Source of the DNA: Botryllus schlosseri
Lineage: Eukaryota
Direction: 5' to 3'
Assembly: GCA_051294905.1 (NCBI GenBank)
Contig: CM119372.1
Coordinates: 36,892,001 to 36,952,000, forward strand
Length of the DNA stretch: 60,000 nucleotides
This document shows, piece after piece, positions 2,789-60,000 of this stretch (position 1 is the stretch's first letter; each line of letters starts with the position of its first letter). A program made the position numbers and the translations under genes. Under the pieces are notes generated by a model. The model worked only from the letters and a program-made list of their open reading frames with translations. It made no database searches and was not told the DNA's origin.

Positions 2789-5700
2789 CTGATGCTTGCC
2801 GCGTTTGTTCTTTTCCTCTCAATAACTCGACTTCAGTAAAGCCTTGGAAGAATTTTAATTAATTGCTCATTTATTGATAAGTTGCTAGCAACACACATAT
2901 AACTCACCTCTGTCAGCGTGGCGGTATTTCACCACTGTCCTTTTTCTCTTCACATCAATACGGCCAATCGCCCAGAGAACTATAATCTCCCCAGCCTTAA
3001 TAACAAATTTGACAATTTGCACCATTTTCGAGCGTTACGAATATTTGTACAGTACATATTTTATTATCCTTGAACGTCAGTAGATAACATATCTGCAGAT
3101 ATTTGTCTGGGTTGCCTACGTGCGTTCAACTGTCTTACGTCTATCGGTATTCCCTTGACAGTCATTTGAAACGCTTTCTGAATGCGCTTAGTTCACTAGT
3201 AATTTGTGGTTGTGGCTATGGTTGGTAGTGTCTTGCGATTCAGCTCTAGACTGAAACGAAAATATTGTATTTTGCCGATTTTCGCGATAGCGTAAGGTGC
3301 AAATAGGGTAATCCACTGCACTCCTGATATATATCTGTATAAGGATTCGTGTAATTGATCCGTTTTCACCCGCCAGAATGGATTTGAAAGAAGAATGTGA
3401 TAGCTAAAAGTCAAAAGGACTACGTGCACCCTTTCCTATGATCCTTTTCCTGGTAAATACACAGTTTTCCTGTGCATGTATTTATAGCGCACGCCTACCT
3501 TGATTGTATTGTCGAAGGCGTTATCTGATTTTAGCGGACGCTTCACTGTTATTGTCGTATGCGTCGCATTTTCAACGCCGTCTAAGATATCGACATTTTG
3601 ATCTGCGTCAACGGTTGGAGGCCCATTTTTCGCTGCATAACAGTCCTAAAACAGAGAAAATGTCAAGGAAATCATTGTTTGCGAGGATATTCAAGAGCCG
3701 GCGATCAACCTATATGAGGAAGCACGTTTCCCATTTACGCAAATAGAAGATGCGTCATATTCAGTTACCGGGAGAAAGCGCTCTTAACATGATATGATCT
3801 CAATCAAGTTTTGTTATTTTCGTGCATTTTACGTCGGTATCGATTGTCTCTTATTTGTCTAGGATTAGTAATTACCGACGATCATTATTTCCTCGTGTGT
3901 CTTGCTTCGTATTTATACCCTTCTGTTCTGTTGTCTACGGTCTTTCGTTTAACTGCACTCTGGATCGTGTCGCCTGTATTAAAGTTATTCTGCTGGTAAT
4001 ATAGGCTACTGATTTCATATTGAAGCCTCGTCGTTTGAGTTATTGTTCGAACAAGATCAAGAACATAACAAATTCGTCAACAAACAGTCTGGCTGTAAAA
4101 ACTGTTTAGTTAAAATAGGAAAACTGAAGAAAAAGTGAACGATAGTAGCAAATGATCGATGAAGCAATGTCTGGGCGAGGTAGGGCAGTGTTAGTATAAC
4201 GACAGGGGGTGATCAAGTAGGTCTTTTTTGAATCTATTTTAAGGCAGTTCACGGATATGTGATGGTAATGCATTCCAGATGATAGATCCCGAGTAGTCAA
4301 TAGATCTCTTAGTTAGGTTGCTATTGGGTGGGGGTAAGTAGATATTTCCCTTTGACGAGGATCTCGTGTAATGGGAATGGACATTTTTAGCAGGTATGGA
4401 AAAGTCATCAAACACACGAGGCAGACTATTGGAAAAATATTTGTAAATAACTTGATACTTCGAAGCGATTTAGTTCGTCAATTCGCAAAATTCGATGATT
4501 ACGGTAGTAAGGCGATAAATTGGTACGTATTATCGGTTCACATCAATCTCAAATATATTCTCTGGCTTGGTCGCGTCGAAGATGTGCGACAGTGGAGAAA
4601 ATTACGGAAATTACATCAAGGGTTACGAGCGACGACGCTTTGAATGGATACCACAATGATTGATGAGTGGTCTTTCGTGAAAACTTTTTACCCAGGGGGT
4701 GGGCAAAAACTCTTTGGGTCGCGGGCCGCATTCAACATCAGAATCCATTCGCGGACCGCACCATAATAAATTAGGATTATTAGCCAAAACACAATATTGT
4801 TACTTAATTACAATAATGGTAACCGAGGACATATTAAGGTAATATATATATATATGTATATGTAAAACAAACCAAACATTGATTGGGTGATATGATAACG
4901 TACACGCGTCAGAAGCATTGACAAGAGTTTATAAGTTGGTTGACCACAGTAACCAAATTGTCAAATTAGGAATGAAGTTCGGTTGTGCCGATTCATAGAA
5001 CAGCATGAAAATTTGAAGCTATGGGCATTTTGGGGCAACGATCTGTTTTGCTAAGTCTACATTTGCATTACCTCCAGACAGGGCTGTAATGTCTCGAGTC
5101 ATGATTTGATCCGAATCCGAATCGAGCTGCAGTTTTTCGGTGACTCGACTTGACGCGAGTCATTTTACTAAAATACGGAAAATTGACAAGACTTAACTGA
5201 GTCAATTTGTCTATTGACTCGTCTTGTACTCGAAACATTTCGCATAACTCGACCAAGTCATATGACTCGAGACTCGGACGGCCAAGATAGGCATTTCTTT
5301 GCAACCTCGAAGAATAGTAAAGTTACTGCAATATTCGTATTTCGTCTATCATAGGGTTGCTATACGTCCGGAATTATACTGCCCTAATGTCCGGAATTTT
5401 GAATGCTTGATATAGGATCAATTTTTTTTCGGTAATTACGATAAACGATGTATTATTTTTGGGCAGATTTATGCCACTTGAAAGTTTTCTTCGCGATGCG
5501 CGCAATTTAGTGTTGCGTCCATTGATTTTAATATGTGTACCACCGCCCATGCAAAAAATGCAATAAAAAATAAATAACAATAACCATCAGTCACAAAAAT
5601 AAGTATAATTGGAATCGTAATTACAGGAGAATGGTATATTCCTAGAGTCGGTTAAGGCTATTTAGATGCTTTAATCAAAGATAGCGGCTAATCAAATTAG

Positions 5701-8700
5701 AAATGAAGTCGCGACCATAATAGGTTGAAAACCACCGGATGTGCAACCTGCTGGTGCGGACCGGCATTTAGGCTCATAAATTGCCATGTCCATGTGATAT
5801 GACATGACTTTACGATGTATAATTACGTCCCCTGCATTTTCGAAGTCATCTTCCGCACCAGCTGTACTGCGGGCGCTAACTATTATCATATGGGTGGACG
5901 GAGGATCAAAATTTTGTAGTAACATATGGAAGAACCAATATTGTAGACGGATTTCATTCACAAAATTTAACGACCAGATGCATATAGAAATCAGATGTAG
6001 TAAGCCCCCAGAAGTTGCATCGATTCCCTATGGCGAGCGGAAGATCAGCGTTTATTTGGACGGGATGGGGCTGAAAAATGTTGTTTCGTTCCTGGTTACA
6101 ACACAAAACCACATAAATGCATTGACCTAACACTATAGCGGCTCCTGATCCGGATCGTGACCACCTCTGGTCGACATGTAAATCTTTGCTACTGTGACGT
6201 CATATTGACAGATGATGTGTCATAGCCCATTTTGAAATCCGCTAGTGGGCGCTTAAGAGTGTCCGGAATTTGATCCACAAAATATGGTAACCCGGGTCTA
6301 TCAGTACTGGTCGGTACTGGTACTTGAACAATAGAGCTATAAACTGTTAAGAGTGAGGAAATTATAACAGTATGTATCAACCTAACAGAGTTGTCAAAAC
6401 ATGGGTTAAACATGACCTGAGCTGGAAAATTAACACTGAGCACGAGGGCTTGGACTCGGACTCGAGTCTCAACGATATTACTCAGACTTGACCCTCTGCT
6501 GCCCGACTTGGTCTCGGACTTGACTCGGTGGTGATTGCAAAGTCCCATAAAAGTGAGATTGAGTTGTGGCTTGGAGCCTTGTGACTTGATCACAACCCTG
6601 CCTTTAGGACACACAATGCTGACAGCATCATAACCATACTACCTTTTAATACGCTTCTACGATACGATTATCGATAATATAAATATAAAATACTTCTACA
6701 CATATTGATGACACATCTACCTAACACGCACCACACACCACCATGTGATAAAAAGATCTACATATAATCCGTCGGAATACCAAAGACAAAAGTGATTTGG
6801 CGCAGTGTGCTACGCAGCACAGTCACGACACCAATGATTGCATGTTGGAGCCTAGGCTCTGCCTAGTTTCTACGTGTCAGATATCTCTACCTGGGCTCCT
6901 CATCGTCGATCTCACTGCATATGTGGTGTCGTACGAAAAGCCTTGATAGAATAAGTGATGTCGAGGCATCGAAGGTTGATAGCAACAGATACTGACGAGG
7001 ACGCATGGAAGAGAGAGTGAAAGATGGTGAATGAATGCGTGCAAGTTGTCCGGAAAAGCGGACCAAGAATTCAAGAGTTGAACGATACAATACTCATGAT
7101 CGCAACGCAAGTGACCGAATAGGCTACGCGCCAAAAACTCTTCAATAAAAACAAACAAACAAGTCAGATATCCTAAATACCCTATATAACTTATAAATAT
7201 TCATGCTCATTTTTGTTCGCACTATCGTCGCGAGTTTGCGGGTTCTTCTACAATGTTACTAGCTCAGAATTACCTGCTTGTTGATACATCATGGTATATA
7301 AGGGATGAATGGCAAAAGAATTCGTGATATTTCGATTATCCTGGAGTATTGCGTCAGCTTATCCAACGAAAAGGCCGACAGCACTGGGAGAAAGATTGTT
7401 CTAATGTTACCCACATAAACATACTCTTTTCCGTTTAGCACCCCTCCGATGATAAGATCAGCACCTGCCATCGTGCGAGCGGGTGCGAAGCCAATTCCGA
7501 CCCATCCTTTTGTTTCTCCGATGATCTGTATTTCAAGAGAGGCATTTCACTCGAGTATGTGTAGATGCGTATCTGATAAACCAGTGATTTTCAATCATTG
7601 AGGGTCAGCGATATTGAGGTGCGGGAAGCCCTCCGCGTAATGAGGTAGGAATCGGTGGATGCGTGCTTGAAATTCCAAGTGTCCATTAACGGCCATATAC
7701 ATTATAATAATTATTGCGTCGTGCCTACCATTGTACATTATTGCTTGTATTTTACTAATACCAGAATGTACCTAAGAGTTGGTAACATTATCTAAAAGCA
7801 AAAGTGCACAAAGTCGCAAAGGTGGTAAAGTTACTGCGCATTTGATTAACTCTTTATAGTAGCACTTCGCATGCACTGCATATCATGCGTGCATTGTCTG
7901 ATCGATAAAACTTCTAAACATGGCTTTTTATAGCGGTAAAGTGCAGTCACCCTACGTACATACTCATTGTTCAATTACTCAATTATATCACACGTTTTAT
8001 GACTTGCAACACCCGCAGAAGCAGCGCATTTTGTTGCAAGTCTGAATAACTGAAGTGAGTGGCTGGTAAGGGAGTTTGGGGAAGAGTGCATCTTCAATCC
8101 GTGGCGATATTTCTTTATTGTGTGCTGTAAATATGATGTGGTCCTCAATTAAAGATAAATGTGCAACAAAATTGTCAGTTACCCGTTTTCTTCAGAATGC
8201 AAGTTGCAATATGACTCTGTGCTGTTGCGTCAAGAGGACGCAAAATGGATGACGTATGACATAATCAAAACCTAATTACCTAAGAAATGGCACTAAGACG
8301 AATGTAGCGTCATGAAATTGAAACAGCGAAAAAAATGCTTTCAGGAGATTTCGCAAAGTGTTTTAAGAAGCGTTATTGGGTGACGACGAATGACCTCATT
8401 ACCACACATATATATATATCCATATAGCTGGAGTGTAATGCTACTTTCGTGAAAATCTCTTAGATGCAATTCGTTTACGGTGGCTTTAGAAAAATGGCTG
8501 CAGCTAAAAATATAACGACTTTCATTTTTAATTTGAGACCACACAATTCGCTGAAGATTGTATTAAAACAGCAAGCTGGAACCAACGTACATACGATCGA
8601 ACGGCAAGCTACTGTTGTAAGCTTCACTGTACCCTAATGCCAGTAACAACAGGAAATTTTATCACGGAACTCATGGAAGCGATGTGCCATGAGCTGCAGT

Positions 8701-8974
8701 GGACTGTTGCTAAATTATGTAACAAGATAAGTCTGGTTATTTATCCTCAAGTTCGACAGCTAAAGCTAAGTTTTTTTCGAAATGCGAACTGACGAGGCAT
8801 AGGGAGAACATATACAATACGTATAAATACCTTCATTTTAATTGAATCTTGATCAAAGTTCCAATGTAATGAAATTCGTGGGCTGAGTTGTTGAGTATAC
8901 TTCCAATCTTCATTGCCCTCCGATGCACTGAAGAACACGGATATAGTCACCAATACCACTATCCAAACATACAT
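2789..8974 (-). CDS. MOXD1: DBH-like (MOXD1-type) monooxygenase paralogue B, exons 1-5 (signal peptide, first DOMON, linker); probably continues beyond the left edge
   Basis: Exons 8974-8831 (MYVWIVVLV...SIKMK), 7525-7415 (IIGETKGWVGIGFAPARTMAGADLIIGG..), 3645-3499 (DCYAAKNGPP..), 2995-2908 (AGEIIVLWAIG..YRHADR) and 2842-2789 (FTEVELLRGKEQ..). All GT-AG, with the same intron phases as paralogue A and identical sizes for exons 2-4; exon 2 is 28/37 aa identical. No exon 6 found in 1-2788. Confidence 0.85.
4191..4540 (-). pseudogene. CR1/L2-group LINE ORF2 3' fragment in intron 2 of paralogue B
   Basis: Minus-strand translation ..YKYFSNSLPRVFDDF..VHSHYTRS..LTKRSIDYSGSIIWNALPSHIRELP*NRFKKDL, typical of the C-terminus of CR1/L2 ORF2; contains a stop and a frameshift. 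Confidence 0.7.
5079..6600. mobile_element. GACTC/GAGTC-rich hAT MITE (family of 12980-13489, opposite orientation), interrupted by a nested element
   Basis: Ends CAGGGCTGTAAT ... CACAACCCTG; degenerate TSD CCTCCAGA/CCTTTAGG; many GACTCGAGTC motifs. Confidence 0.7.
5352..6295. mobile_element. hAT Blackjack-like MITE nested in the 5079-6600 element
   Basis: Ends TAGGGTTGCTATA ... TATGGTAACCCGG; perfect TSD GTCTATCA (5344-5351, 6296-6303); related partial copy at about 36344-36720. Confidence 0.8.
6795..7162 (+). mobile_element. tRNA-derived SINE, family 1
   Basis: A-box TGGCGCAGTGTG, B-box-like GTTGGAGCC, body shared with the copies at 26148 and 39110, (AAAC)n tail. Confidence 0.7.
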
Positions 8975-13489: not shown

Positions 13490-13543
13490 GCAAAAAGCAC
13501 TATGAAGTAGTGTAACTACTAGATAGCCAGTAACGATTTTGAA

Positions 13544-18016: not shown

Positions 18017-21000
18017 TCATTCTTTCGTCGATGGACAAGACGGATTACCATCCACATATTCCCCAACTTTGGGCGGGGTGAACTCTTCAAAGTAGTTCTG
18101 AATATATATAGTCGAACAATGATTATAATTTCAAGTTGCTGTTATATAATTAACACCCACCAGTATTGCATCGCTTTTATAGAGACAACTCGCGTATTGC
18201 TTTGTATTCTCCATGAATTCCTGAGCAAACGCGCGCTTGCCGTCGTCCCACACCACCTTAATATTTCATGTATGAGTATGAGAAGTACAGAAAGTGAAAT
18301 GCCAATAGGGGTATCGACCTAATCATTGAACTATGTTTGGACGCAGGTTGAGATATTAAACCGGAAAATTAGCATGAAGATTGTGTAGCCTATTTATAGT
18401 TTGGATACGCACAACGTACCATAGTCCTACGAATTTAAAAACTCTGTTTATATCAGAATATATCAATTTTGTATTCCTAGTTGCTAAATCGTTGCAAATG
18501 GCAGTAACTCGTGTCTACTTCAAAAACTAACGAGGACATCAAGTTTACCTGTGAAATTTATTTCGATTAATTACGTGTTTGTAGCCTATAAGAAGGCGAA
18601 GTGCGGTCTACGATCGAGTAAAATTGTAGCTCGCAAGATAGCCATTCTTATTGTTTATCAGAAAGAGTCATGTATGAATAAAAATATTAGTATAATCGGA
18701 ATTCAAACTGACTCCTGAAAAAAGTTTCTCCCATAAGATTTCCATTGCGCTCCAATAATTATATATGATTTCCATTCCAACCCGCTCCACTTCTTTTGGA
18801 TCCAGCGATACGTTTAAGCCATTGGCGAGCACACTAAGATTTTCTAAGTAAAAGAAATTGGATTATATCAATAATCAAAAGTTATCTCGATAAGGAAATA
18901 TTATCAGATTCAGAAATCACCATAGACTTTGCCCCTCGACCCACATAGGGTCATACGTAACGGTGGGTAATGTAGAATGTAGGCAATGCACATTTCGCTG
19001 GTAGTTGGTAGCCCGCCCTGTAACATGATGGTTAAGAGTTATGAGTGTCCCTATTCAACAGTCCGAATTATCAGAATCGCACCGGTGTGATATTTGTTCT
19101 GTCCAAGGTTGTGTAACCACATTCGAGTGTCAACGAATCTCCCGCCTTCAGGGATTTTGGCTCCTCGAAGTACTGAATTTCCTGATAATTGAAGTCGTAA
19201 TGGTCGTCCGACGCCACGGCCAGAAGCTCCGTTCCATTTCTATATTCAAGAAAATTTAAGAATAATTTTAACCCCAATTTAGCCGAGCTATAAGCCGTAG
19301 ATCAGTGATTTCAAACTGGTCAGTAAAGAAGAATTTCCAAATGCCACAGTTTTGTATTCAATTTGCCAAATATGCCAATCTCTTCTCACGATTTGACTTA
19401 AATTGTTGTTCCGCCCATAGATGCTGTAGGCCTGATTTCGAAGACAGTTATTTTGATTGGACGGCGAAATTGAACAGAGCGTTTTGTGTGTGCATTACAA
19501 TTGGAAGGCTTTGCGAACGCGGATTGGAAATCGCAATCCAGCCCGATAATAATCAGCAAACAAGTGCCATGACGCGAGCTATAATCCGAATTCAGAACCA
19601 ATTTATGTTCGAGTAAAAGGACAAATTACTGCTTAAATAGGAGCTTTCACGATTTTAATTATATAATACGTGAATTCGTGTCCACTTGATACTCTCGTAT
19701 TCTCGCGCAATCTCACTTGCGTGAGTCTAGTTTCAACTTGCTACTCACGCAACTCGTTGTGCGCAGAACTGCGTTCTCATTTGTTTGGTCATATCTCATG
19801 GCCAGTCTCACAATGACACTTGCATTAGACGTGGTTCGAACACTGAAACGCGTTGGAAACCACTGTAGTAGATAAAGCTGATCTCCCACCTATTTCAGTA
19901 GACTTTTGGACTTGTTGAAAGTTTTTATCTCAATTTCGGATTCTGAATTTTATTTTCAGTTTTGACTGAAGACAGGTTAGAACACCTGAATAATGAAAGA
20001 ATCACAATAGTCAGAGTTATAGTGATCAGTGTTTGTGATTTTGATCAAATTTGGGGTGATGAGTAATTATTTCCATCCGTCGATCTACCAGATTGAAGCA
20101 AGCAACCAAAATAATTGCCTGAAGTGACGCAGCCTCATCTTTGTACCCGCTAAATGGGAATGGACAAATACGCCAAAAATCTTGACCTCGTCCACACCAG
20201 CCCCCTTCATTGCCTGAACAACAATGCTGCGTTAAAGAAGACGGTGTATTTTGGGTTCAAGTGGGCATTAATACCGTGTTCAAACAGTTCTCCCGGCAAT
20301 AACCACCAAGCTGGAAATTGTCAGCTCCTGGAGGTATCCATATCGTGGTGAGGGAATGTTCGATATCGAACAGGCCAACCAGCGTTCCTGGCTTTTCCTT
20401 AACATACGATATTCGCATGCCGGAACTGTCAACAAACTCTAAGCGAAAAAGCTGTAAATAGACTGAAAATAGTCCACATTCAGATCGCGTCACCTCTTCC
20501 TTCTGGATTGTCATAGTGCATTTCCACGAGAACATATTGAGGGTGGCTGTAACCGCCTACTGGAAATCCAGAGTCCGTTGGAAATACAGTTCCCGAACCG
20601 CCCACGGCCCAACCTCCCAAAATCTTACTGCATCCCGCAAAGAAGGGATTTATCTCATCGTAGCACGAATACGAGCTGGTCAGCTGTTTTTGACTCTGAA
20701 ATTAGACGGCTGCAGCTACATCTCGAACATACAAATTTTAAGAACCAGCATAACTATTACAGAGATCTTGAATCGGTGACTCCTTAATATGCCCAATCCT
20801 GCATATGGCTGTTTTGATGATGACATCGGACTCTACGATTTCCTATAAGTTTATTATATGCTGGCACTTCTTAATTGGCATCTATTGCAGGAATTTTCTT
20901 TTAACTTTCTATGACGAGACAAATCAGTATTGTTGTGACAGCTAAGATAAGCCGTTGTGGGGTCAGTATTAACAAGATCCCATTTTTTTTTGTACAAGTA

Positions 21001-24000
21001 CAACTAATTTCTAGAGTAACATCAGGATGTCCGAGAAGGAATGAAAGTTGAAGAAGGAATTATAACTAGTATCTTACATTTCAGGTGAGGATATAGGAAA
21101 TAGTATTCGTCGGAAGAACAGATTCTGCGGTGTGTCAGGGTTACCATATTTTGCGATTCGAACGAGAGGACACTTTTCAAAAATCTGAAAGTTGTGGTAC
21201 CGAAAAAGAAAACTGGTATGGTAGGCCTACTCTGTTCACTAAAAAAGGTCATCTTTCCCGTCTCTACTTCCGGGATACCCGTCGCAACGTATTTTTCATT
21301 GACTGCCTTGCCAACTCCAGCGTTCGCTGCGTCCGAGTCGAGTTTACGATCACATTTTAATACTTTTTCCAAAAGAAGAGAATATTTTAGCGTCTTTCGA
21401 GGGCACTTTCAATTTAATGAAAAAAGAGAACAAATACTCAAGAGGACATATGGTAACCCTAGTTTCATATGCAATCATAAAATTACGTCAATGAAATGGT
21501 CCAATATAAAGCGGCATTTCGACTTGCGTCACTGCCACATCGATTTTATCACTCAACACCAAAAGAAGCATTAACTGTAACAAACGTGTTACCGAAGAAT
21601 GAACAGTAAATCCACAATTGCTGGTTTCGCTTCGAAATTTACATTTCATTGCCTTCAGTATAGAGATTTATCATACGTCTCCTACAGACATGCAAGTTAA
21701 AATTTGTGGCGTCCAAAGCACACCCAGAAGTTACCGTCGTCTGTTCTATTACAATGAAAATCGTTCGCAAAAGTTTACTCACAATCTCCACGTCACACAA
21801 GAATATGGTGACGTGATGAACATTACGTTCGTTTCCTTTGGTGAAATATGGATGTATCTGAAAAAATGATAAAGTTTCAGCGTTGACATCGAAAGGACGT
21901 ATACACCACATTTTTCGTATCATCTTTTCGTACGCAATGCTTTAAGCTGCTGCATAATAGCATGTTTAGCTACCGTTTTCAGTGGAATGTGTCAGGATAT
22001 TTGCTTCTAGGGATTTGCAGTCAGTTTGTATCCGGCGCCCAAACTTGTGTATAGCTCCAACTTACTCCGGTAATATAAATGGTTTCGTTTGCTTCGGAAA
22101 ACTTCGCAAACTCGCACAAGTAATATGTAGATTTCGCTGGCACAAGAAAATCCGACGGACCGATGTTGGCCTGAAATTCCTCATTCAACTCGGCTGTAAA
22201 AGTAATTGAATTGAGCGGTTGAATTATTGTCAAATCGCTATGTTACAAAAACGGTTCACGTTAACAACAAATTACCTAACTTTACAGGTAAAACATATTC
22301 AGTGTAGGCGAGGTCAATGGACTATCTGAACAACACAAGTATTGTAAATATTGTGGCTTTCACGTTTATGGCATCCTTATATAGCCAAGTTGTAGTTTTA
22401 TAAAACAACATTTGACCAATATTCTCGACGAATGTAATTAGAGTCTATTCAGGAATTCACATTGGTAGATGATGCATCATTGTCGAGTGCGTATGATCGT
22501 GCGATGTCAATCCTATCATATGCACGACGCAAGTCAAGACTTTGTTCGCTAGTGATATTGTGTCGTTTTAATGCTCATATATGTGGAAAAGATGAATTAA
22601 TCTATTATGTATCATATTCCATTCTTCAAATATCTTTGGAAACGCCAGCGGAACGTGATACTATAAAATTTTATGTAGCATTTATGATTATATATTCATT
22701 CGAAGAGACTTTTGGGGGTACAAAACTTTATTATACATTTTAATAATATATTCATATCATAATTATATTAAAACCCTAAGCTTTTCGAGCTGACACTCTT
22801 CAGGGGCGATTGTCAGCAAATAGAGAATTTCAAAAACTTGCACGCAACTACATTGCATACATCCAAGTGTGATGTCATAAAAACGAAAACAACATTGAGT
22901 ACAGGGAAACCGAGAGCGCACATATCCTATGAATCATCATCAATGACTAAAGATCATCTCTACCTGAGCAGAGAATGAGGCCTGATAAATATCAGAAATA
23001 CCTAGCGTACATGAATAATTTTGTACTAAAAGCGAAATATATTACTGGTGAATGATACTCACATGATTTCCGTATCGTAATTGGATTGATTAGCTTCAGG
23101 CTTATGCCACCTGAAGATAACTTGAAAGCTCATTGCTACAGCAAAATATTGTCCATAAAGAGCAACGCATCTTACCTCTGTTCCATCCATGGTAATAGCC
23201 GAAATGTGGTTTGTCGCCATGTAAATCATTTGTCCCATACGCCCATATTACCTTGTACGTACCAGACTACAATAAAAAAAGTAGCGGTTAGCATAAAGGA
23301 TGGTCCAAAAATACGCTTCGCACTCACTGTCGGTATGCCTACCTTGGAAATTCGGGGGCTTGAATTTACCAACGAACCCTGGAAGATCTATCAGGTGGAC
23401 GTTTTTGTGGGATAACAGAAAGATTCAGTAACATTTCTGAGCAAAATTCTTTGAAGTCCAGTTTGCTGTTACTAACTGCATCACGGAGGTAGCAACAGTG
23501 TTGGGATCAAGTCACTACCTTCGAGTCACGAGTCATTTCGAGTCATTGCATATCTTGACTCGAGTCAAGTCAAGTCAACCGATTTTCGAAGGTGACTTGA
23601 GTCAAGTCAAGTCAAGTCATGAGTCAAGTCACAATTCAAGTCAGATTGAATTTACGAAGTATGAGTCATCACTCATTCAAATTCAATTCAAAGTCATTGC
23701 ATTTTGATAGCTGTGTCAAAGACAGATTAATTGGTCATTTATATTGAATCAAATAACGAATATAAAGTTGAACAAACATGCCAAAAGACGTTGTATCGCT
23801 CGCAAACACGTAGAACTGCTAATAAAATAAGTGAGTAGCTGTACAGTTACATATGATACAGTCAGCTATTATCAGCCAAAATATAGAACCGAATACGAAA
23901 CCCCGAAAAGTTGAAACAAAATGATACGGTACAATGGCCTACACTACCCATCTTCACATCCGTAAGAATATAAACGCACATAAGCTACTATATTTGTTCA

Positions 24001-27000
24001 ATTTAAATCAGTGTCTCCCAAACTTTTTTGAGCTACCGCCCCCCTGGACAACGAATGGAGTGCCACCGCCCCCCGAAACCCCCCTCACCACACCTGATCA
24101 TAAAACGAAAGTGGTTCTGCATTTAATATAGCTAATAACGAGACGAATGAAGCTGGTGTATAGGCTAATTATCATCATTCTCGTCATATTGGGTTTGAGT
24201 TTTGATAGGAACAATATCAGTCTAAAATCTCCAGTGTTCACTTCATGTAGGCCTTCTGGCAAGTCGGTTTCTGATGTTAGTCAGGAACTTGGTCACGGCG
24301 CTGAGAACACGTTCTATCAAATATAAGCGGGGAGGACAACGACAAAAAAAGCCAACCCGACTCCTGTGAGAGTGTTTATTTTTTATTCAATTGTGTATCC
24401 AGAACGATTGATTGGAGATTTTGAACTCAAAATTTTTCTACACTTCAATTAGGGCTAACATATTTTGGGAATCTGAAAAGAGGAAGCTTTTTCAAGATTG
24501 TCAGATTTACAATACTGGAATAAAATCCGGAAAAATGGTAAATTTTTTCTGAGTTAGTAGAAAAAAAGGTCATTTTTTCTGGCTCAGGTCCCAAAAAATC
24601 CGTCGAGCACTGATTTCCTATATCTCAGTCAAATCTCCACATACATTTAACCGAAATTTTAAAAAATAGGACAAATTCTCAAAAAAGAGGACATTTAGGC
24701 GTCCTCCGAGGGCACTTTCAAATAAAGTCATAAAAGAGGACGAATCCTCTTAAAAGACTACATTGTAATCAGCTGCTCAAACATTTCATGCCTGGAAACT
24801 ACACAGAAAGGATTGAATATCCGGCGATGAATTTCTAATTGGAATATATCCTGGAACCAAATCACCATCCTCGTGTAATTTTGTGAGATGTTTGATTAAT
24901 GTTTCTCCATCAAAATCAGGTATTCGAGCTGGACCGGCAGCTCAAAGCAAGCTTGAGAATCGGAACAGTTGTTTTGCTGCAAAATTCCGGTGAATTATTG
25001 ATGACTTGTCATCGAATACGGACAGTGCCATGTTCACCTCTATCATTACTAAGAATGGATATATTCTACCCTTAAATTTTGAGAAATACGACAGTCAAGT
25101 AGGAGTGATGTCATTTCTCGCAACCAGAACGCCGTGTCGAAGGCCACGGTGACAGCGCTGTGGAAAATCCTCGATCGTTTGAAACAGATAATAAAATCAC
25201 GCAAGACAGTTTTTCTTAAAAAGCCATCACATCTTGCAGTGAGCAATAAATGCTCAAATACACTTCGTAGTTCTCACAACAGCACATAATGAACCACGCT
25301 TGTCGGGGATGATGCCGACTGCTAAATTAGTCTATTGATGAGCAGGAATAACATTGTCAAGTAACAATGGACTTTTCCGATACAGGTAAATGAATAGACG
25401 GACGACCCTAAATTGCCCTTACTTAATCTATTATGCATTTTCCTGCGAATCTAGCTGCTTTATTATTCAATCGTTTAACACTATACGCAGCAGTTGCCTT
25501 ATTCTAAATCTACACTCCCCGCATTTGCTTTCAGCGCCCCCCTACCGCCCCATTTTCTAGCCAGCGCCCCCCAATCGCCCATTTCATGACCAGCGCCCCC
25601 TTCACGCTCGCGAACGCCCTCAGGGGGCGCTGGCGCCCACTTTGGGAACCACTGATTTAAATCATACGAGAGGGGGGGCAAAGGTGAGCACTTCGCAACG
25701 TAAGCATTGAGCCGTCCAAGAAACAGAGAAACATTGAAATTCGATTAATCTACTACTAGTACGACAACGTAAGCTGTGATCGTTTCGTTTGCGTCAATTT
25801 ATTTGTGATGTAACAATCGAGGATCAGTGTAACGTACAAGCAGTGGTTGCTCTCACAAGTGACACCGGCGTATCTCGAACAATCCGAACATACACAAGAT
25901 ACAGTGATTTGATCGACGCCGTTTAGTTAATGACTTGAAATTGACTAGTAAATTTTTCTCCGAGTCACGAGTCAATGCTGATTTCTGAAGCTCCGAGTCA
26001 AGTCAAGTCAAATCATTTTTCCAAAGCCACTCGAGTAAAGTCAATTCATACAGAAAAGTTGACTCGAGTCAAGTCATGACCCGAGTCATCCCAACACTGG
26101 GTAGCAAAACTATGATGTACCTTGCATGGTAATTATTTATATTTTCTGGGAAGCGAGTGGCGCAGTTGGTTAAACACTGCAGTCACGACACCAAGGACGT
26201 AGGTTGGAATCTCGGCTCTGACCAACTTCTACGTGTCGGAGGTTTCTCCTGGCTCTTCATCGCCGACCTCACTACTAAGGTAGTGGATTGAAAGCCCAGA
26301 CAAAAAGTGAGCCGTGCGACAAGTCGGCAGCAGAGACCACGACGGGGACGCGTGGGAGCGAGAGAGAATGAAGAATGACAGCGAGAGAGATTGAAAGACG
26401 TACCCAAGAATACAAAAAGCAAAGACTTATGGACATTATGAAATTCGTGTCGTGGAGCACAAGGCCTTAAAAGGCGTGAACATGAATACATACATACATT
26501 TATATTTTCTAAAATTCAGCTCGAGATAACACATTGCTCTGGTAACGAATATAATAGGTCTTCTCCCTTTCATTGCTAATTAAATCAGGCTTGGGAACGA
26601 GCTATAGGGTGACAACGCGATGATGTCAGAAGCATCGGTGTCTTATGCCACCTCTCAAAGGACATTTGTCATCCGTGGTGCAAAATGTTGCAAGGTATCC
26701 TGCGGTTATTCGAGCAGTCATAAGATACTGGGTGCAAAAGATGGACACTAACTAGCCTAAAATTGATCGCAAAGCGCCAGAAGAGACTTCCGGCGGACGT
26801 TTACGAACGAGTTGTTATGAAACATTATGGCGGCCGCGGGCTATTTGACAACACGTTTCACAACTGTCGCATCGTCGTGCGTGACATCTTACGTAAGGTC
26901 CTGAGCCTACTCTGATAAATCACCGGAACTTTTACAATATCTTTTCCAGAGAGTGACATGGAAGAAAGTAAAAGTGTTATCGAGTACTACTATCGCACCA

Positions 27001-30000
27001 ATAAGAATGAAAAAGCGATCCTAATCCTAATTTCTATAAGCGAACTGCAATGTCGATCAATGTAACTAGCGGCTAGATGCAGTATCGTATTTTTGAACGC
27101 CACGGTGTAACTGAACAATGCTACTCAATGCGAATAGACTGCAAAATGTACTTCAGTACTCCATAAAATGAAAGTTCTTCGATAATCCGATAATACCTCT
27201 GGGGTTGCAAATGATATGATGAGTAGGGCGATTTTTTTACCTAAAAACGGAAGATTTGTCCTAAAAAATCAAACTTCTGACATTTTTTACTCTAAAAATT
27301 CAAATTTGATCGAAAGTATGCAAATTAGGTGTTTTCCCCGAATAATGTTAGATTTGTACTACTTTTCTTTATTTCTGGTTGGAACTGTCTGTCCTTACGA
27401 AGTAGTCTGACATGAAAAAACTTTTTTGACTCAACAGCGAAAGATACTTTCCTACATTCTCGAGTAAAAAGTGCCTGTCTTTACTAAGTAGCTTGCTTGG
27501 AATGGAAAGAACGTTCAACAGCAGCAGTTGTTGGCTGACGCCACTGTAGTTGTGCGTACACTGCTGGTGACACACTGTGTTGCTTCATTCCGACAATGGT
27601 GTCTACATCACAATTTTTCATCATGCGCTTCTTGATATAAGAACCATGCAATGCCCACGCAGTCTTGCTTCAGTTAGGATATTGCGGTAGGTCGGGCATA
27701 ACAACATATCAGTCTATTTGTTTCATTTGAATGTTTATCATTCACAATGAGCAGACGATGAGCCGTCTACAACGGTAGGCCTATAAAGTAGGCTACAAGC
27801 TGTAACATGTCAAATGATAAGTTCACCGACAGTACAAAATCTACGATACAAACGAAATGCAGGTTGCAATAACATTTTTACGTTGTAAACAATTTTGACA
27901 TTTTTTGACCTAACGCTACAATTTTGACAAAATTTTGACTTTTTTCGAAATGTCAAAAAAATCGCCCTGATGAGATATAGTGAAATTTAATTAGTTATCA
28001 AACAAATAATAAATCATGCGTTCGATGTTTGATTAGATAATGTAAATAGTAATCAAATGGATATTCGCGTGGACTAATGCCTGGTGACAAGGTTAGATAA
28101 CGACCGTTGTAATCTTACCTCTAGATCCATGTCATCTGAGTTACAAATCAGTCTATTTCGACGTATGGTGACTCCGGTGTGAGTTTCGTTTTCCCAGCCC
28201 CCGATAACCTCGATGCTCTGGTCCTGGTCTACAACTGGCACTCCGTTTCGATCAGAATGACAGTCCTGTTGCAGACGGGTATAAAAACGTAGATTTACTG
28301 TTATCCTGGACCCATGTGAACTAAAATTCAAATTAGGTTTGAACGGAAAATTGTCTCCCTGGAAAGCTTATCTTTACTCACTAAGCCAGAAAGTTTGCAG
28401 CTATTCGAAAATCTATATATACATATGGCGTAGATAGATGTCGGCCATATACAGTGACAGTTATATACATACTCAGATGATCCAACCCGATAAATGCATT
28501 TCAACAGGGAGTTTCAAAAAATAACATGAAATGAAAACAGCGTTACAAGTGGCAAGAGAAAACTATTGCATAAGATGTGTATATTTTTTAGCTGCGAGCG
28601 AAGTGAAACTGGGCAATTCTTCTGTGTGCATTGTCTGTTTTGTTGTTCATGTCCACCATGATTTTCCACCGAGTACACGTGTCGTCAGTTGTCTTCAACT
28701 GAGATAATAATGGGTGCTATTGAAGATTGTAATTCTGGTACTTCAGTTAAGCCTTGATTAATTTTGGAACGTCTGGTTGATATCATGTCTCACCAAAGCG
28801 TACGCTTCGCCCGATCTGACTCCCGCCATAATAATATCCGCACCATTCATAGACGTGGTTCGAGAAAATCCAACTCCCACCCATCCTTTTGTTGGAGCAA
28901 TGATCTAATAAAATTTAACCATGAATCGGAAAGGAAAGAAGAATTGAGATGCGCATTCTACTTTACTTGCATTGTGATGGTACTTTCATCAAAATCCCAA
29001 TACAGATTCACTGGTTGCAGATGATCTAATACTGCGTTGTACGGGAAACCGATAGGTTCAGACTCAATGGGTGTCATCGGCGGTGTTTTCCCGGAGGCTG
29101 CCGTAAATAAGTAGCCTACTGTTAGTGACATTGATTTAATCCAGTGGTTCTCAACCGTTATGCCGCGGCACACTATAGTGTGCAAATTAGATCGCCCAGT
29201 GTGCTGCGAAAAATTGTGGTAAAAGAGGTGGACGCAGAACCAATATTAATGAATTAAAATGTTGAGTGTGGCACAATCGATGGTTCTAATATTTTACCCG
29301 CTCAGGACACACAATGTACAATGCGATGCAATTAACAGCTAGGAAGACATCGAAATAACAAGTTTCTGTCTCTCAATCTCAAAGCCAATGGCTGCACAGT
29401 GTCATGACGCAGGTCGATGCGTTTTTTCTGTTTTTTCTAGTCATCATCTTGCCACTTCTTCGACATCTATGTTCATTTTACACTAACCCGATTTTGCTTG
29501 TTATGATTCGTGAGATGCCTGCCGACTAGTATGGCCCACTTCCACTCCAGACTTTTTGTATGACAACGCTCATGCAGATCCGATGGGGAGCCGGAGCCTA
29601 GATAAAGATAGGAATGGATTTTGGAGTCGACCTTGGCCGAACTCGAACGCGCAACACATTTATTATGCAGCGGTATAACGTGCCACTACGCTACTCGCCA
29701 CTCAAGGTATCCGAAGTGCTATAGGGTGCTGAGAACTTTTTTCCCTTTGAGAGGATGCCACGAGGTCGAAAAGGTTTTGCCTTTCACCGCATTATGTCAG
29801 GAATGAAACTATTGCAAATTGTAATGGGTTTCGATATAGGGCCCTGGTCTGGCTTCCGTAGATCGGGTTTCATTCACAATATCAACATGCGCTGTGGCGC
29901 AGTGTTGCGATCACGATCATGAGGGGAGAGTTAGTTATCAGACCAATTAGTCAGAAGACCGATAGACGGTCGTATCCAGAGGTATAGCTTCTTTGACGGC

Positions 30001-33000
30001 GGCTAAAGGTTTATCCATTGCTCCGAATCTCCAACAGAGCTGCACTGTCAGCTATAAAACGGTATTTTAGGACTTTAAATGCAAACTCCACTCTAGCCAA
30101 AATGCAGGTAAAATGTAATCGCCGGAACTAACAGTATTATGACCAGTAAATCTTTGAATATAGGACTACCGCGTTAAACCATTAAAAGATACATATCACT
30201 AGTATTGGGATCAATTAACTTCCTACAATAACAAGTCACTATACGCGTCGTTGCACATTTTGACTCGAGTCAAGTCAAGTCACTCGATTGTTTGAGGTAA
30301 CTGTTAAAACGAACAATTTACCTGTTTTCTGCTTCTGTTCTTTTCCTCTCAGTAACTCGATTTCAACAAAGCCTTGAAAGAATAATTATTCATTTTATAT
30401 CTTTTCTTCTGTCAGAAGTGATATCAATTTATAATCACCTCTATCTGCGTCATGATATTCTAGCATTGTCAGTTCGTTCTTCATATCCATGTTACCGATC
30501 GCCCATAGAACTATAATCTTTCCAGCCTAAATTTGCAATACAGTTAGCAATTACCAAGATTGTGCATCATTAGAAATGCTACTTGAAGTAATATTTTAGT
30601 CACCATATTACCAATTACAATTACGATATCATCGGACAACTGTGTGTGATGCCGACATTTATCCACTATGGTTCAATTGTCTGCAGTCGGGACCATATCT
30701 CGCGAGACACATATGCCTTTTTCGAAGGTGACTTATGGCTCCCAGAGTAGTAGAATAAGTTGGCAGTTATCATTCAGCATAATTACGATATTGCAATGAT
30801 CTGTATGGTTTTTCAAGACAAACATACATTCGCGGAGGCGTTGGCGCGGTACGTAACGAATTTGATGACTATAACGTCATGCGGTCGCTCGTTTCATAAC
30901 TGAACATTGAACAATGAGAGAGAGAGAGAGATATGGTATTCTTTTTCGCCTGCACCATCGAGATGCTTTGACGACGGAGTTGCGATACGGCCCCATGAGG
31001 TCATCTAGTCTTCGCCCCCGTTTTTTTCTCCTCCATGCTATCCGTGATTGCTGAGCACCTAGCAGGATAGCTGCGGATACCAATTTTTGAGTCTTTGGTA
31101 TGACCCGGCCGGGGATCGAACCCACGACCTACCGCTCGAGAAGCCGGACGCATAACCATTACTCTGACTCTTTATTCGAAATTTTCTGCCTTTCAACAGC
31201 AGTAGCGATGGAAACGAAAATGTGCACTATGTTACGGGACGTCGGATCAAACATATCGACTGATATAATTATGTAAATAGATGCGTTTCAGATTGATTCA
31301 ATTATGAGACTATATCGTGAACAATCAAGAAATGCTACCGCGACAAACAAACCGCTGGACTATAATCGTTGAATATCGGTGATATAATTATTAGGACAGA
31401 AAATATCCTGACTTCTCAGAGACACATAATCCGAATTTATACCGCGAATAACAGTACTTTCCGTATACCGATTGAAAGCACGATTTAATGCGGAGATTAG
31501 CTTTAGGAAAACGCGAGAATCAAATTGCGAAGAGTTCTGCATTTAGTGGAAAGTGGATTTGTGGTAGTTTGGTGTTGGTATGTACTGATCGTGCCGGGAC
31601 GCCAGTAAATCCGATTACCTGGTTTAATGAGTCCACGTGCTGTAATATCACATCGTTTTCACCACATACAAAATAGTGCACACGAAGAATCAAATTTAGT
31701 GAGCTTCGCCTTCGCGGCGCAATGTTGGCAAGAGCGATTTTAATCAGATCTTCAAGTGCTGTTTCTGTATAGTGCCTACCTGTATTGTTTTATCAAAGGC
31801 GTTGTTTGATATCAGCGGACGCGTCACTGTTATGGTCGTATGCGTTGCGTTTTCAATCCCGTCCGTAACTTGCACATTCTGTACCGCGTCAATGGAAGGA
31901 GGCCCATTGCTAGTAGCGTAACAATCCTGCAAATTAAAACATTGAAACGACCACTTATGGTCACTTTGTTTACGAGACGGACTAATTACAACTTAACAGA
32001 CTGCGGCAATAATGCTCGCCTTCTCGAAATTTGAGATGGATTACTAAGACTTTTTGCAAGTCGATGTCATATTTGTTGCTCCGTGTATAGTCGGAATTTC
32101 ATATCTGAGAGTTCCTTCAACAGTCATAACCTATCATATGCCATCAAACTATGCATTGGGATGGCGAACATTATAGTAGCACTTTTTAATATGTTTTGAC
32201 ATGACGATCAAGGGTGCGCGAAATTTTTCGCTATCATCAAGAGGGGGTTTGTGTGAAAACGTTCGAGAACCACTTGATTATATAGTTACATATCAACACA
32301 AGCATCATGCACGTCACATGAGCACAATTAAATGATAAAATTGTCCGCTTCATTTACGTATCCGTATGCCACGATGACTCTGACCATACAAAACGACCAG
32401 TTACATGATTATTTTCGTATACGAATATCCTTAGATTGGCGCTGAGGCTGCAGCTCTCAACAGACAAATAGCTAAGATATCTAGTCGAGTTTCGAAATAC
32501 ATGTCTTGGTTTCATCGCGTTCATAAATGTATTTTGATGCCTAGTATAATCTTGCATCGTATAAACAGCGATATATTGATGCATCTACACCATGACGAAA
32601 TTCGAACCCTGTAAAACTATTCATATTAAATGTTGTATTAACTGAGGAATTTACCGACCCAAACGTAGTGTTTGTCGTTTCGTATTCCCCCTATGATAAG
32701 ATCAGCCCCAGCCATTGAGCGAGTTGGCGCGAAGCCGATTCCTATCCATCCTTTCGTTTCCCCCGTGATCTGCATTAAAAACAGGGCGTTAAAATGTTTT
32801 CGTCTGTGAACACTGGCAAATTGGCGGAGTCGAATATGCGGGACTTGCAGCGCTTTCAGCTTCAGCTTTTTCGTGATAGATCTTTTCAGTGAAAAATACC
32901 GATGCCGAACATTTCAAGGAAAAATTTACAGCCACAGTTACAGTTGCGTTTAGGTTATATCAGGCCAGTGGTTACCAAGCCTCTTAGAACCCGAACCAAA

Positions 33001-33283
33001 TCTGAGTTTGATGTGCGTCTCGCTACCCTTCCCAACATAGAAAAGGGATTTTTCATGGTAGCCGAGTACGTTTTTTTTAGTTGTTAGACAAGTCGCAAAC
33101 AGTCAGTTGTAGTATGGAAAATACCTTCATTTCAATTGAATCTTGACGATAGTTCCATTGTAACAGAAAACCTGGGCTGAGTTGATGAGCATATTTCCAG
33201 CCTTCGATGCCGTTTGCATGACGGAAGTACAAATACATTACAAGTAGTACTACCCCCTTAAGATCCATCGCTTTCCGCAACAT
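18017..33283 (-). CDS. MOXD1: DBH-like (MOXD1-type) copper type II ascorbate-dependent monooxygenase with two tandem DOMON domains; 20 exons, about 769 aa (paralogue A)
   Basis: Manually spliced exons: 33283-33125, 32769-32659, 31926-31780, 30526-30439, 30372-30322, 29097-28967, 28904-28794, 28265-28119, 23266-23176, 23110-23063, 22193-22066, 21857-21783, 20695-20494, 20438-20275, 20213-20119, 19239-19083, 19017-18921, 18843-18713, 18256-18161, 18097-18017. Total 2310 nt, phases compatible, GT-AG except one GC-AG. Signal peptide; DOMON motifs GWIGIGF..SMAGAD and GWVGVGF..SMNGAD; catalytic motifs VHH, WAVGG, EMHYDNP, DSSG, HSHLAG, YDFNYQ, EMC. Symbol is family-level (MOXD1-like); orthology not tested. 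Alternative start ATG at 33268. Confidence 0.9.
19303..19865. mobile_element. hAT MITE in the GC-AG intron of paralogue A
   Basis: CAGTGATTTCAAAC ... GTTGGAAACCACTG; TSD CCGTAGAT/TAGTAGAT. Confidence 0.7.
21126..21461. mobile_element. Blackjack-like hAT MITE in an intron
   Basis: AGGGTTACCATAT ... ATATGGTAACCCT TIRs with GAGGAC motifs; related copies at about 24450-24770 and 47660-48087. Confidence 0.75.
23496..26099. mobile_element. GAGTC-rich hAT MITE with nested insertions, intron 8 of paralogue A
   Basis: TIR CAGTGTTGGGAT ... ATCCCAACACTG; perfect TSD GGTAGCAA (23488-23495, 26100-26107); partial copies at about 30200-30300 and 35983-36310. Confidence 0.88.
24009..25654. mobile_element. 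Charlie-like hAT non-autonomous element nested in 23496-26099
   Basis: CAGTGTCTCCCAAA ... TTTGGGAACCACTG; perfect TSD ATTTAAAT; contains a Blackjack-like MITE at about 24450-24770. Confidence 0.85.
26148..26498 (+). mobile_element. tRNA-derived SINE, family 1
   Basis: A-box TGGCGCAGTTGG, B-box GTTGGAATC, (CATA)n tail; homologous to the 6795 and 39110 copies. Confidence 0.8.
27224..27969. mobile_element. MITE with AGGGCGATTTTTT TIRs and apparent 5-bp TSD
   Basis: TAGGGCGATTTTTTT ... AAAAAATCGCCCTG flanked by ATGAG on both sides. Confidence 0.65.
29142..29780. mobile_element. Degenerate hAT MITE in intron 5 of paralogue A
   Basis: Starts CAGTGGTTCTCAACC with GCCGCGGCACAC subterminal motifs; right end decayed. 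Confidence 0.5.
30915..31165 (-). mobile_element. tRNA-derived SINE, family 2 (MetaSINE-like central domain)
   Basis: Minus strand: B-box GGTTCGATCCC followed by GGGTCATACCAAAGACTCAAAAATTGGTATCCGCAGCTATCCTGCTAGGTGCTCAGCA, with a (TC)n tail. Confidence 0.75.
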
Positions 33284-33344
33284 TATCGGACTGAGAAACG
33301 AAAGAGACTATAACACTAACTATAAAGCATGCCGTTGAAACGTG

Positions 33345-57100: not shown

Positions 57101-57669
57101 GGTAAGTTCAAACCTTCCTTATTGCCATTGTCACATTTACACGCGCGATGCTTCAAATTGCTACGTGATACGTTTCCAAATCTCTAATTCGTAAAACAAG
57201 TCTATTGATTACCAGTCATCATTAGTTTGTGGCGAACATGCCATCGTTGAGAATAATTTAAGTAGGTATTAAGGAAAAAACTCGTAGACTGACACTCGGC
57301 TAAGCGAGGGCAAACTTCGGAAGCACTGTTAGTTTCCACCAACCGCAAAAATACTATTTCACCAATCTGCATACTGCTCGGGAGGCAGCGACCAAGACGA
57401 CAAGCTTTGTAGTATCCTGAATGAATTTTAATGTTTCAATAGATGAATTGAACGTGCCTGCGGATTAGACAGAGTTAAAATGAATCAGATTCACCAATGT
57501 TGAATTATGACGACGAATAGTGTTAATTACCGTCACCGTATTGACAATGAAATGCATCAACAATGTAATTCAGTGCTTTCAAAATAGAAATAAAATTAAT
57601 ACGTCGCAGAATACAGTTAAAGAATTCGACTCGGCCAACTAATTCTCAGATTTTGATTTGGCCCATAGG

Positions 57670-59020: not shown

Positions 59021-60000
59021 CCCATAGGGGAAAATACTTTCCCACCCCTGGTATACATGGTCATCGCACCATTCGCGGTCAAGCCAAGTCATTTATTGAT
59101 AATAAATCAACGCTACGGGTGGAAAAAAATCCATAGCAAAGCTGCAACTACATGAAAGTCGGAGATGGTGGTCAACTGTACAGTGTACACACAGGTAAAT
59201 GATGCACATCTTTCCAATTTCCGAAAAATTTTCCGGAAATGACGGTGGGAAACAGTGGCGTCGTGGTATGGGCGTCATGGTAAAAATACTTGGGTGATTG
59301 CTTCTCCTTGATAACGAATAAGTTGCTGTGGACTAGTACCGTTTACTGTAAATAAAAATTCTGCACACCTATAGCCCCAAAGATGGCACAAGTAAAAACA
59401 CCCCGTGGCCCGTTAACCTTTGGATTTTTTTTTCGCGGTTTCTTTGCATAGTAGCATGCGACATTAGAGAATGTGGATTGAAGTATTGGGCTAAAGTACC
59501 GTTAGGACATGATTTTGTGTTCCGTTAGGTTAGGAGTGAGGGGTAATTTCGGGATTTGGGATGAATTTGAGTTCGATTTGTAGCAATGGATCCTCCTCGC
59601 CCTCTCATCCGCCAAAGAGGTGTCTCACAAAGAGCCTAGAAGTGGGCAGTGGTATTCTACAAGTCGGCAGATACGGAATCACAAGTAAGGAATATCGGCC
59701 TGGTGTAAATGACGATAGTAATCGACAAACAACATGAATACCACAAACAAACTAGATTTGTAGCAATAGATCATATACTCATGTGTCGCTTTTCATTTTG
59801 ACCGGTGATCAAATGTTGGGAACCGTTTGGCATATGCGTCACAAAACGCCCTATGGGGCTAACTAACTTATAAGATAAAAACGCAGTTACATATACCTCC
59901 ATATAATCTCTTTTGTCAATGCAAGAAGTGTAAAGTGTCATGTTGTCCGTGAAGTCTTGCGCAAATTTTCTCTTTTCATCCGTCCAGACAACCTGATGAA

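Follow-up and report, generated by a model that had tools for sequence, protein, structure and literature searches.

A copper monooxygenase gene of Botryllus schlosseri, probably MOXD1-type, with two DOMON domains ahead of its copper core

Enzymes of the copper monooxygenase family use two electrons per turnover, which are loaded via the copper sites, and vertebrate MOXD1 carries a C-terminal hydrophobic membrane anchor. DOMON domains are said to occur often in multiple copies; this is reportedly a point made by Aravind in 2001 and Iyer in 2007, whose surveys may already show multi-DOMON monooxygenase architectures. Three articles, cited here and below from excerpts, describe the closest systems. 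Human MOXD1, whose substrate is unknown, has a conventional heme pocket, unlike dopamine beta-hydroxylase (DBH) (PMC9565017). The DOMON of DBH lacks axial heme ligands, and its Cys154 is disulfide-bonded to the C-terminal Cys596 (PMC4846438). A Met/His motif is described for heme-type DOMONs, which are tied to interdomain electron transfer, and 19 of 888 insect CYBDOM proteins have two DOMONs (PMC10691727). The role of the DOMON in DBH-family enzymes, and whether MOXD1 holds heme, are still open (PMC4846438, PMC9565017). Here, we describe a gene in a stretch of 60,000 nucleotides of the Botryllus schlosseri genome (the window; assembly GCA_051294905.1, contig CM119372.1, positions 36,892,001 to 36,952,000) that encodes two DOMONs, DOMON1 and DOMON2, in front of a copper core of two domains, CuH and CuM. 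We call it gene B; its tandem paralogues are genes A and C. All positions are those of the window.

Gene B runs from 33283 to 18017 on the minus strand in 20 exons, with an open spliced frame of 769 codons (Table 1). Once the joints seen in RNA are taken up, the introns are 18 GT-AG and one GC-AG, the latter being intron 15 (20118-19240, minus strand), where the RNA joint 19239/20119 reads CT..GC. A preliminary description, made from the sequence letters, had already proposed 20 exons and 769 amino acids, and the model built on RNA joints matches it exactly. The range it had given, 23063..33283, covers exons 1-10, but the gene continues to 18017. The RNA joints ruled out a draft with 21 exons, in which 22325-22286 was an additional exon and exon 18 was short. 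All six copper ligands are present, namely three His in CuH and His, His and Met in CuM. The CuH ligands additionally rest on the alignment to DBH (4ZEL) and PHM of P0002, an 852-aa two-DOMON enzyme with 54% identity to gene B over 809 columns, which was the stand-in query for structure and database searches because the 2 matches among 17 candidate proteins did not include the gene B product itself. Exon 1 probably encodes a signal peptide, of modest hydropathy (1.12). The C-terminal hydropathy maximum is 0.06, versus 2.5-2.9 in tailed relatives, so that a hydrophobic anchor is absent. An RNA contig continues beyond the stop codon into the 3' untranslated region.

Table 1. Gene B, its exons and the parts of its paralogues lying in the window.
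Feature	Positions	Strand	Content	Evidence
Whole gene B	18017..33283	-	putative signal peptide, DOMON1, linker, DOMON2, CuH, CuM, helical C-terminal part; no hydrophobic tail	open frame, RNA joints, hydropathy
Exon 1	33125..33283	-	start codon, probable signal peptide, first strands of DOMON1	open spliced frame
Exon 2, 111 nt, DOMON1	32659..32769	-	Met72 codon 32715-32713	Pfam DOMON E 8.7e-07
Exon 3, 147 nt, DOMON1	31780..31926	-	no Cys equivalent to DBH Cys154	Pfam DOMON E 2.9e-06
Exon 4, 88 nt, DOMON1	30439..30526	-	His164 codon 30454-30452	run X1 bin depth 2.5
Exon 5, 51 nt	30322..30372	-	last strand of DOMON1 and start of linker; its GT donor has the correct phase	
Exon 6, 131 nt	28967..29097	-	Pro-rich linker and first strands of DOMON2	RNA contig record 2, positions 203-337
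Exon 7, 111 nt, DOMON2	28794..28904	-	Met248 codon 28850-28848	Pfam DOMON E 3e-08
Exon 8, 147 nt, DOMON2	28119..28265	-	Cys307 codon 28145-28143, equivalent to DBH Cys154	Pfam DOMON E 0.0039
Exon 9, 91 nt, DOMON2	23176..23266	-	His341 codon 23191-23189	RNA joints
Exon 10, 48 nt, DOMON2 end	23063..23110	-		RNA joints 23108/23174, 22193/23063
Exons 11-13, CuH	20494..22193 (22193-22066, 21857-21783, 20695-20494)	-	His418, His419, His489	Pfam Cu2_monooxygen (PF01082), RNA joints
Exons 14-17, CuM	18921..20438 (20438-20275, 20213-20119, 19239-19083, 19017-18921)	-	His569, His571, Met644	Pfam Cu2_monoox_C (PF03712)
Exons 18-20, C-terminal part	18017..18843 (18843-18713, 18256-18161, 18097-18017)	-	Cys764, stop codon	RNA joints
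Paralogue C, exons 1-5 within the window	2789..8974 (8974-8831, 7525-7415, 3645-3499, 2995-2908, 2842-2789)	-	DOMON1-type domain	
Paralogue A, last two exons	56291..59992 (59992-59897, 56482-56291)	-	hydrophobic tail at the end	

The two DOMONs are encoded by one exon cassette present twice. Exons 2-5 measure 111, 147, 88 and 51 nt and exons 7-10 measure 111, 147, 91 and 48 nt; the two sets share end phases of 0,0,1,1, and the introns there are all GT-AG. Exons 2 and 7 match positions 27-59 of the Pfam DOMON profile, and exons 3 and 8 match positions 61-111. These sizes and phases are as the preliminary description had them, as are the Pro-containing linker, which measures 26 aa with 38% Ser/Thr/Pro, and the Met and His motifs of both copies, which lie at Met72, His164, Met248 and His341. 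Its central claim of one gene with two DOMONs out of one cassette is supported. It had confined the repeat to exons 2-5 and 7-10. Those exons are homologous, but the unit extends further and takes in the 3' stretches of exons 1 and 6; these encode the first strands and have the same aligned end position. Across 150 codons, DOMON1 and DOMON2 are 36% identical in amino acids and 50% identical in nucleotides, and their synonymous sites are saturated. Their local alignment scores 268, whereas 1000 shuffles averaged 30 and reached at most 55, a comparison run on a draft model with one additional residue at the exon 6 donor. When the cassettes were compared as nucleotides together with their introns, one weak match appeared at the exon 2/7 position (E 0.06); the other matches were repeats. 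We regard the two-DOMON architecture of gene B as close to certain.

Gene B is almost certainly a single expressed gene. Four sequencing runs were compared with positions 17800-33500. RNA contigs show the joints of at least 12 of the 19 introns (introns 8-19), and every one of these is present in both contig runs. In run X1, contig record 2, which is 1612 nt long with a depth of 14.9, places exons as the model does: exon 6 (contig positions 203-337), exon 8 (450-595), exon 13 (938-1139) and exon 16 (1399-1556). It departs from the genome at the exon 6 acceptor with 202 letters more upstream. The depth in the exon 4 bin of that run equals 88 x 14.9 / 524, that is, it fits contig record 2. Reads from raw run X19 cover 9 of 12 listed joints (1-11 reads each), while run X23, which is not counted as evidence on expression, has none of the 12 and zero depth in six bins over 17800-20943. 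No run listed in the search for this sequence is recorded as RNA, a point likewise given no weight on expression. The RNA junction check that the preliminary description had proposed thus displays the splicing of exons 6-20. The exon 5-6 joint is not among the joints listed, which counts against a single gene, and the transcript link between DOMON1 and DOMON2 is a strong inference drawn from the overhang of contig record 2 and the exon 4 depth. If exons 1-5 were instead a separate short gene or a leftover duplicate, with exons 6-20 an ordinary single-DOMON gene, the unlisted joint would be expected, as would the in-frame Met directly upstream of exon 6 and the depth close to nil on exons 1-4 in run X3. 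Such a split is at odds with the 202 letters that contig record 2 has past the exon 6 acceptor, with the matching exon 4 depth and with the right phase of the exon 5 donor. It is also at odds with the collinearity of P0002 and the Styela proteins across both domains. Since the whole P0002 enzyme sits on a 2685-nt contig, that contig is an intron-free transcript, and it supports the link between the two domains independently. We find two separate genes barely credible.

The product is best read, from its sequence, as a MOXD1-type copper monooxygenase of the secretory pathway. It shares with MOXD1 (DBH-like monooxygenase protein 1, monooxygenase X) the Met/His pair of the DOMON, the three His of CuH, the His/His/Met of CuM and the tethering cysteines, and it is DOMON2 that has the MOXD1 features (Met248, His341, and Cys307 with Cys764). 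Named matches with a catalytic core are mostly labelled MOXD1. The nearest relatives of the core are Styela MOXD1-like proteins, in a tree without any named row of DBH or tyramine beta-hydroxylase (TBH), and in the P0002 search 4ZEL scored 177 bits, versus more than 200 for all of the 150 best MOXD1-like representatives. Gene B differs from MOXD1 in its additional N-terminal DOMON on a flexible linker and in lacking the C-terminal anchor, a tail that paralogue A, P0002, P0004 and P0034 have. Because it has two DOMONs and not exactly one, it is a variant rather than a standard member of MOXD1. Human DBH (PDB 4ZEL) is the best solved relative of P0002 by sequence (E 3.9e-51) and by fold (E 1.3e-42), and its Cys154 and acidic metal-site residues align with DOMON2; however, it has one DOMON, which carries no heme ligands and has Leu in place of the Met. 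The AlphaFold model of P0002, made from 47 sequences (mean predicted local distance difference test score, pLDDT, 82.5; predicted template modelling score 0.69), is confident in both DOMONs and below pLDDT 50 in the linker (173-234). Its best fold matches are DBH and PHM, followed more weakly by cellobiose dehydrogenase cytochrome domains (1D7B, 4QI3, E ~2e-5). These cytochrome domains and the CYBDOMs share the DOMON fold and the Met/His pair, but in those proteins the heme domain is coupled to an electron source, either flavin or cytochrome b561, whereas gene B encodes a copper enzyme, an electron sink.

A single DOMON is the norm in this family, as the preliminary description had assumed. 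Among the 150 best representatives at 50% identity, 114 have one DOMON and the core, versus 3 with two DOMONs in front (one from Styela, two from Tubulanus); the rest are 15 whole-enzyme tandems, 5 DOMON-only proteins and 13 partial or other forms. P0148 was not counted as two-DOMON because its second DOMON piece is C-terminal. As one outcome that would refute it, the preliminary description had named a layout that is widespread and already characterized. The layout is rare, and no published description turned up, yet it is present among Styela clava RefSeq proteins (772-819 aa, found in the P0002 search), of which P0003-P0005 each have two Pfam DOMON stretches. It is therefore already in RefSeq, unremarked. 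The Styela proteins, named 'DBH-like monooxygenase protein 1 homolog' (XP_039261995, XP_039261999, XP_077973283 and neighbours), have the same DOMON-DOMON-CuH-CuM order and 38-40% identity to gene B over ~750 aa. Their DOMON1 and DOMON2 are orthologous to those of gene B, and there are several copies, both tailed and untailed. What differs is that their automatic names are silent on the second DOMON, and no paper on them was found. A full-text literature search, with most subscription journals outside its scope, gave, among the papers listed, no title or abstract about two-DOMON copper monooxygenases or about ascidian DOMON repeats, and in those papers the phrase 'two DOMON domains' occurred only in an insect cytochrome b561 paper. 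A profile search (34 matches of 5896 candidates) added no species with the layout and gave one Clavelina match, with a single DOMON. Of the matches that could be identified, none was named as coming from Ciona or Phallusia, which is weak evidence of absence because the searches were word-limited and P0002 itself has no representative among the 150. The Tubulanus polymorphus proteins XP_074645948 and XP_074653681 also have two DOMONs ahead of the copper core. They branch apart in both the DOMON tree and the core tree, and the layout of this nemertean is a separate gain.

Other arrangements of the same domains came up in these searches. The whole-enzyme tandems (P0025 from Eriocheir sinensis, P0028-P0033 and others) may be real fusions or merged gene models. 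P0199 (Melanomma pulvis-pyrius), P0200, P0202-P0205 and P0207 are ~930-950 aa long and consist of DOMON-CuH-CuM, a CDH-cyt domain and a His-bearing membrane tail; they are named only 'iron reductase domain protein' or hypothetical. Such a protein is possibly a DBH-like enzyme fused to its own reductase. The tail gave no Pfam cytochrome b561 match in any of the five proteins scanned, and spaced His in 4-5 hydrophobic stretches suggest that it is cytochrome b561-like. A Diplonema japonicum transcript (P0160) has two DBH-like enzyme units and then a DOMON and a weak cytochrome b561 match (E 2.5e-4, below the cut-off). Judging by these fungal-type and diplonemid fusions, extra heme-type DOMONs appear to recur beside a DBH-like catalytic core.

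Styela clava also has uncharacterized DOMON-only proteins (P0006, P0010, P0171, P0024, P0026 and P0027) with 2, 3, 6 or 12 copies, which appear from their sequences to descend from the DOMON of this MOXD1 subfamily. An alignment was made of 168 DOMON domains, each covering no less than 75% of the profile, and ten proteins were excluded from it as near-duplicates or mis-modelled. Both Met and His are retained in 107 of 115 single-DOMON enzymes (one of which is P0016, probably truncated), in 6/6 DOMON2, in 6/7 DOMON1 and in 26/31 Styela DOMON-only domains. Those of DOMON1 and DOMON2 line up with the pair of the Pfam CDH-cyt domain in a profile alignment, so both DOMONs of gene B have Met and His at the axial-ligand positions of cellobiose dehydrogenase and neither is of the ligand-less DBH type. 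The placement of both copies' Met and His at heme-ligand positions, as the preliminary description had it, therefore stands, but there is nothing special in this to the extra copy, given the 107 single-DOMON relatives and the heme pocket of human MOXD1 (PMC9565017). Because so many single-DOMON relatives keep it, the pair is the starting state of the family. The Cys matching DBH Cys154 is distributed differently, being found in 108/115 single-DOMON enzymes, 6/6 DOMON2, 0/7 DOMON1 and 0/31 Styela DOMON-only domains. From this we take DOMON2 to be the built-in domain and DOMON1 the appended one. By analogy to Cys154-Cys596 of DBH, we infer that DOMON2 is disulfide-tied to the C-terminus through Cys307-Cys764. 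The acidic residues matching DBH Asp99, Asp114 and Asp126 are present in 7/7 DOMON1 and 31/31 DOMON-only domains. The linker ranges from 26 to 77 aa in length.

The gain of DOMON1 predates the split from Styela, since DOMON1 and DOMON2 each form a clade across both genera. In a first tree (68 rows, LG+G4, with 22 of the 111 unnamed single-DOMON rows taken by id, and with the bootstrap incompletely settled), one clade (97/94) unites the DOMON1 domains of P0002, of Styela and of genes B and C, and a second (99/94) unites the DOMON2 domains. In a second (52 rows, mixture model, with six DOMON-only rows dropped, four divergent and two near-copies), the clades have support of 95 and 97. The duplication is ancient, because synonymous sites are saturated and Styela clava has the same layout. 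By which route it occurred is a harder question. The preliminary description had it as an internal duplication. When DOMON1 and DOMON2 are constrained to one clade, the loss is 5.0 log units, and an approximately unbiased (AU) test does not reject that grouping (p 0.43). The route is unproven, though, because two trees put DOMON1 among the Styela DOMON-only domains. DOMON1 could have been taken up from a nearby DOMON-only repeat gene, which would itself stem from the enzyme family, rather than copied directly from DOMON2. The first tree groups DOMON1 with 30/31 of the DOMON-only domains (95/86) and the second with 24/25 (Shimodaira-Hasegawa-like approximate likelihood ratio test, SH-aLRT, 88, unstarred), and DOMON1 and these domains share the loss of the Cys. 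Yet the uniting branch is short, the AU test leaves the other grouping standing, and an internally formed DOMON1 that later seeded the repeat proteins would give the same tree shape. We treat recruitment as a serious possibility, a little short of probable. The second tree also groups DOMON1 and DOMON2 with all its DOMON-only domains and with a single-DOMON enzyme from Styela (SH-aLRT 96). Our reading of both trees is that one MOXD1 subfamily may have released its DOMON cassette, which later multiplied, DOMON1 being either its first copy or one taken back in afterwards.

What DOMON1 does is addressed here by sequence and analogy. The preliminary description had suggested an added ligand-binding or electron-relay module. 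We tentatively favour a MOXD1-type monooxygenase in which DOMON1 would be a tethered heme module that stores or passes electrons, a reading that falls somewhat short of being probable as a whole. Judging by its six intact copper ligands and by the family, the CuH/CuM core would hydroxylate a small substrate, for which it would use O2 and draw two electrons from an external reductant, for example ascorbate. DOMON2 would be the ordinary built-in domain tied by its disulfide to the C-terminus, and DOMON1 would be a released copy of the cassette, its tie lost, on a flexible linker of variable length. DOMON1 may bind a b-type heme through Met72 and His164. Much like the cytochrome domain of cellobiose dehydrogenase, it might then store electrons or carry them as a mobile unit, re-reducing either the heme of DOMON2 or CuH. 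The heme module is favoured because the Met/His pair aligns with CDH-cyt, because heme DOMONs are linked to electron transfer (PMC10691727) and because of the other eukaryotic fusions, which by analogy lend the relay idea indirect support; we consider the relay plausible. Several points weigh against it. The excerpted literature contains no heme-binding measurement for any MOXD1 DOMON, and the Met/His pair, being ancestral, may be merely inherited. Paralogue C has Arg at the conserved DOMON1 His column in its exon 4 (2995-2908, minus strand), with His one residue later, a natural variant for heme-binding work. The threefold range of linker length disfavours a fixed geometry of electron transfer. 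The copper core needs no relay, since PHM works without a DOMON and DBH with a heme-less one (PMC4846438). The core of Styela P0016 is identical to that of the two-DOMON P0017, yet its model begins within the linker, and it is either a truncated model or a form without DOMON1.

DOMON1 might instead be a non-redox binding or targeting module for a small aromatic ligand, a metal ion, a glycan, the tunic matrix or a partner protein, in which case it would position the secreted enzyme or bind the related DOMON-only repeat proteins. The long, variable Ser/Thr/Pro linker is of a kind generally typical of appended binding modules, gene B has no membrane tail, and the acidic residues are kept more strictly in the DOMON-only domains than Met and His together. 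DOMONs are moreover described as heme- or sugar-binding with function largely unknown, and the DBH DOMON combines a metal site with a ligand pocket that is empty (PMC4846438). The Met/His pair in 6/7 DOMON1 tells against such a module, since sugar-binding DOMONs and DBH lack both residues (PMC10691727), and we consider it unlikely. DOMON1 could also be a near-neutral passenger from a cluster in which DOMON cassettes are freely copied and shuffled. The multiplied DOMON-only proteins of Styela would fit, those with a recorded contig being on one of 22.5 Mb, the size also given for the contig of the two-DOMON enzymes. So would the whole-enzyme tandems, allowing for fused gene models among them, and the faster evolution of DOMON1 than of DOMON2 (58% versus 66% identity to P0002). 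However, DOMON1 has been kept since before the Styela split under purifying selection, and in Tubulanus, where the gain was separate, the outer DOMON of P0122 likewise lacks the tethering Cys; a passenger is quite improbable. A tethered heme module remains our preferred reading. As a long shot, it could be extended to an extracellular heme relay in styelid ascidians, in which a freed and multiplied MOXD1 DOMON would provide both DOMON1, as a tethered cytochrome feeding copper, and the secreted proteins of 2-12 DOMONs, as multi-heme stores or wires for clustered monooxygenases. If true, this would be an animal counterpart of the fungal partnership of cellobiose dehydrogenase with a copper monooxygenase, perhaps for catechol chemistry in the tunic or blood cells, the site being a guess. 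Taken as architecture alone, gene B is a modest lineage-specific duplication of a readily repeating domain. The usual DOMON is woven into the enzyme by its disulfide and an inserted strand, whereas DOMON1 and the DOMON-only domains are natural copies without the disulfide, so that heme binding and transfer to copper are testable on a small soluble domain.

Gene B lies in the middle of a tandem cluster of at least three genes and is under purifying selection. Nineteen listed variants, a small part of the variant table, were examined; 17 are coding, and 13 of the 17 are silent. Between genes B and C, DOMON1 has 70% amino-acid identity, with 0.18 nonsynonymous (dN) and 0.78 synonymous (dS) changes per site and a dN/dS of ~0.23. 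Between 34000 and 56000, tblastn searches with the model, P0002, P0004, P0006 and P0010 gave no additional exons of a DOMON or a core. Mobile sequences are present within and around gene B. Intron 8 has a 2.6-kb insertion (23496-26099) that has terminal inverted repeats of 12 bp and is flanked by an identical 8-bp duplication, which we take to be typical of a non-autonomous hAT-type element. On the plus strand at 13523-15959, two overlapping open reading frames of 432 and 390 aa, the first matching DUF4371 (E 2.7e-12) and the second without a match, are probably a frameshifted hAT-like transposase. Directly upstream of gene B, a reverse transcriptase fragment (33841-34791, plus strand; RVT_1, E 7e-08) is probably the remnant of a long interspersed nuclear element. 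Short repeats at ~26150-26440 and 31010-31160 have very high RNA depth from reads that continue unlike the window, and are probably short interspersed nuclear element-like sequences transcribed elsewhere.

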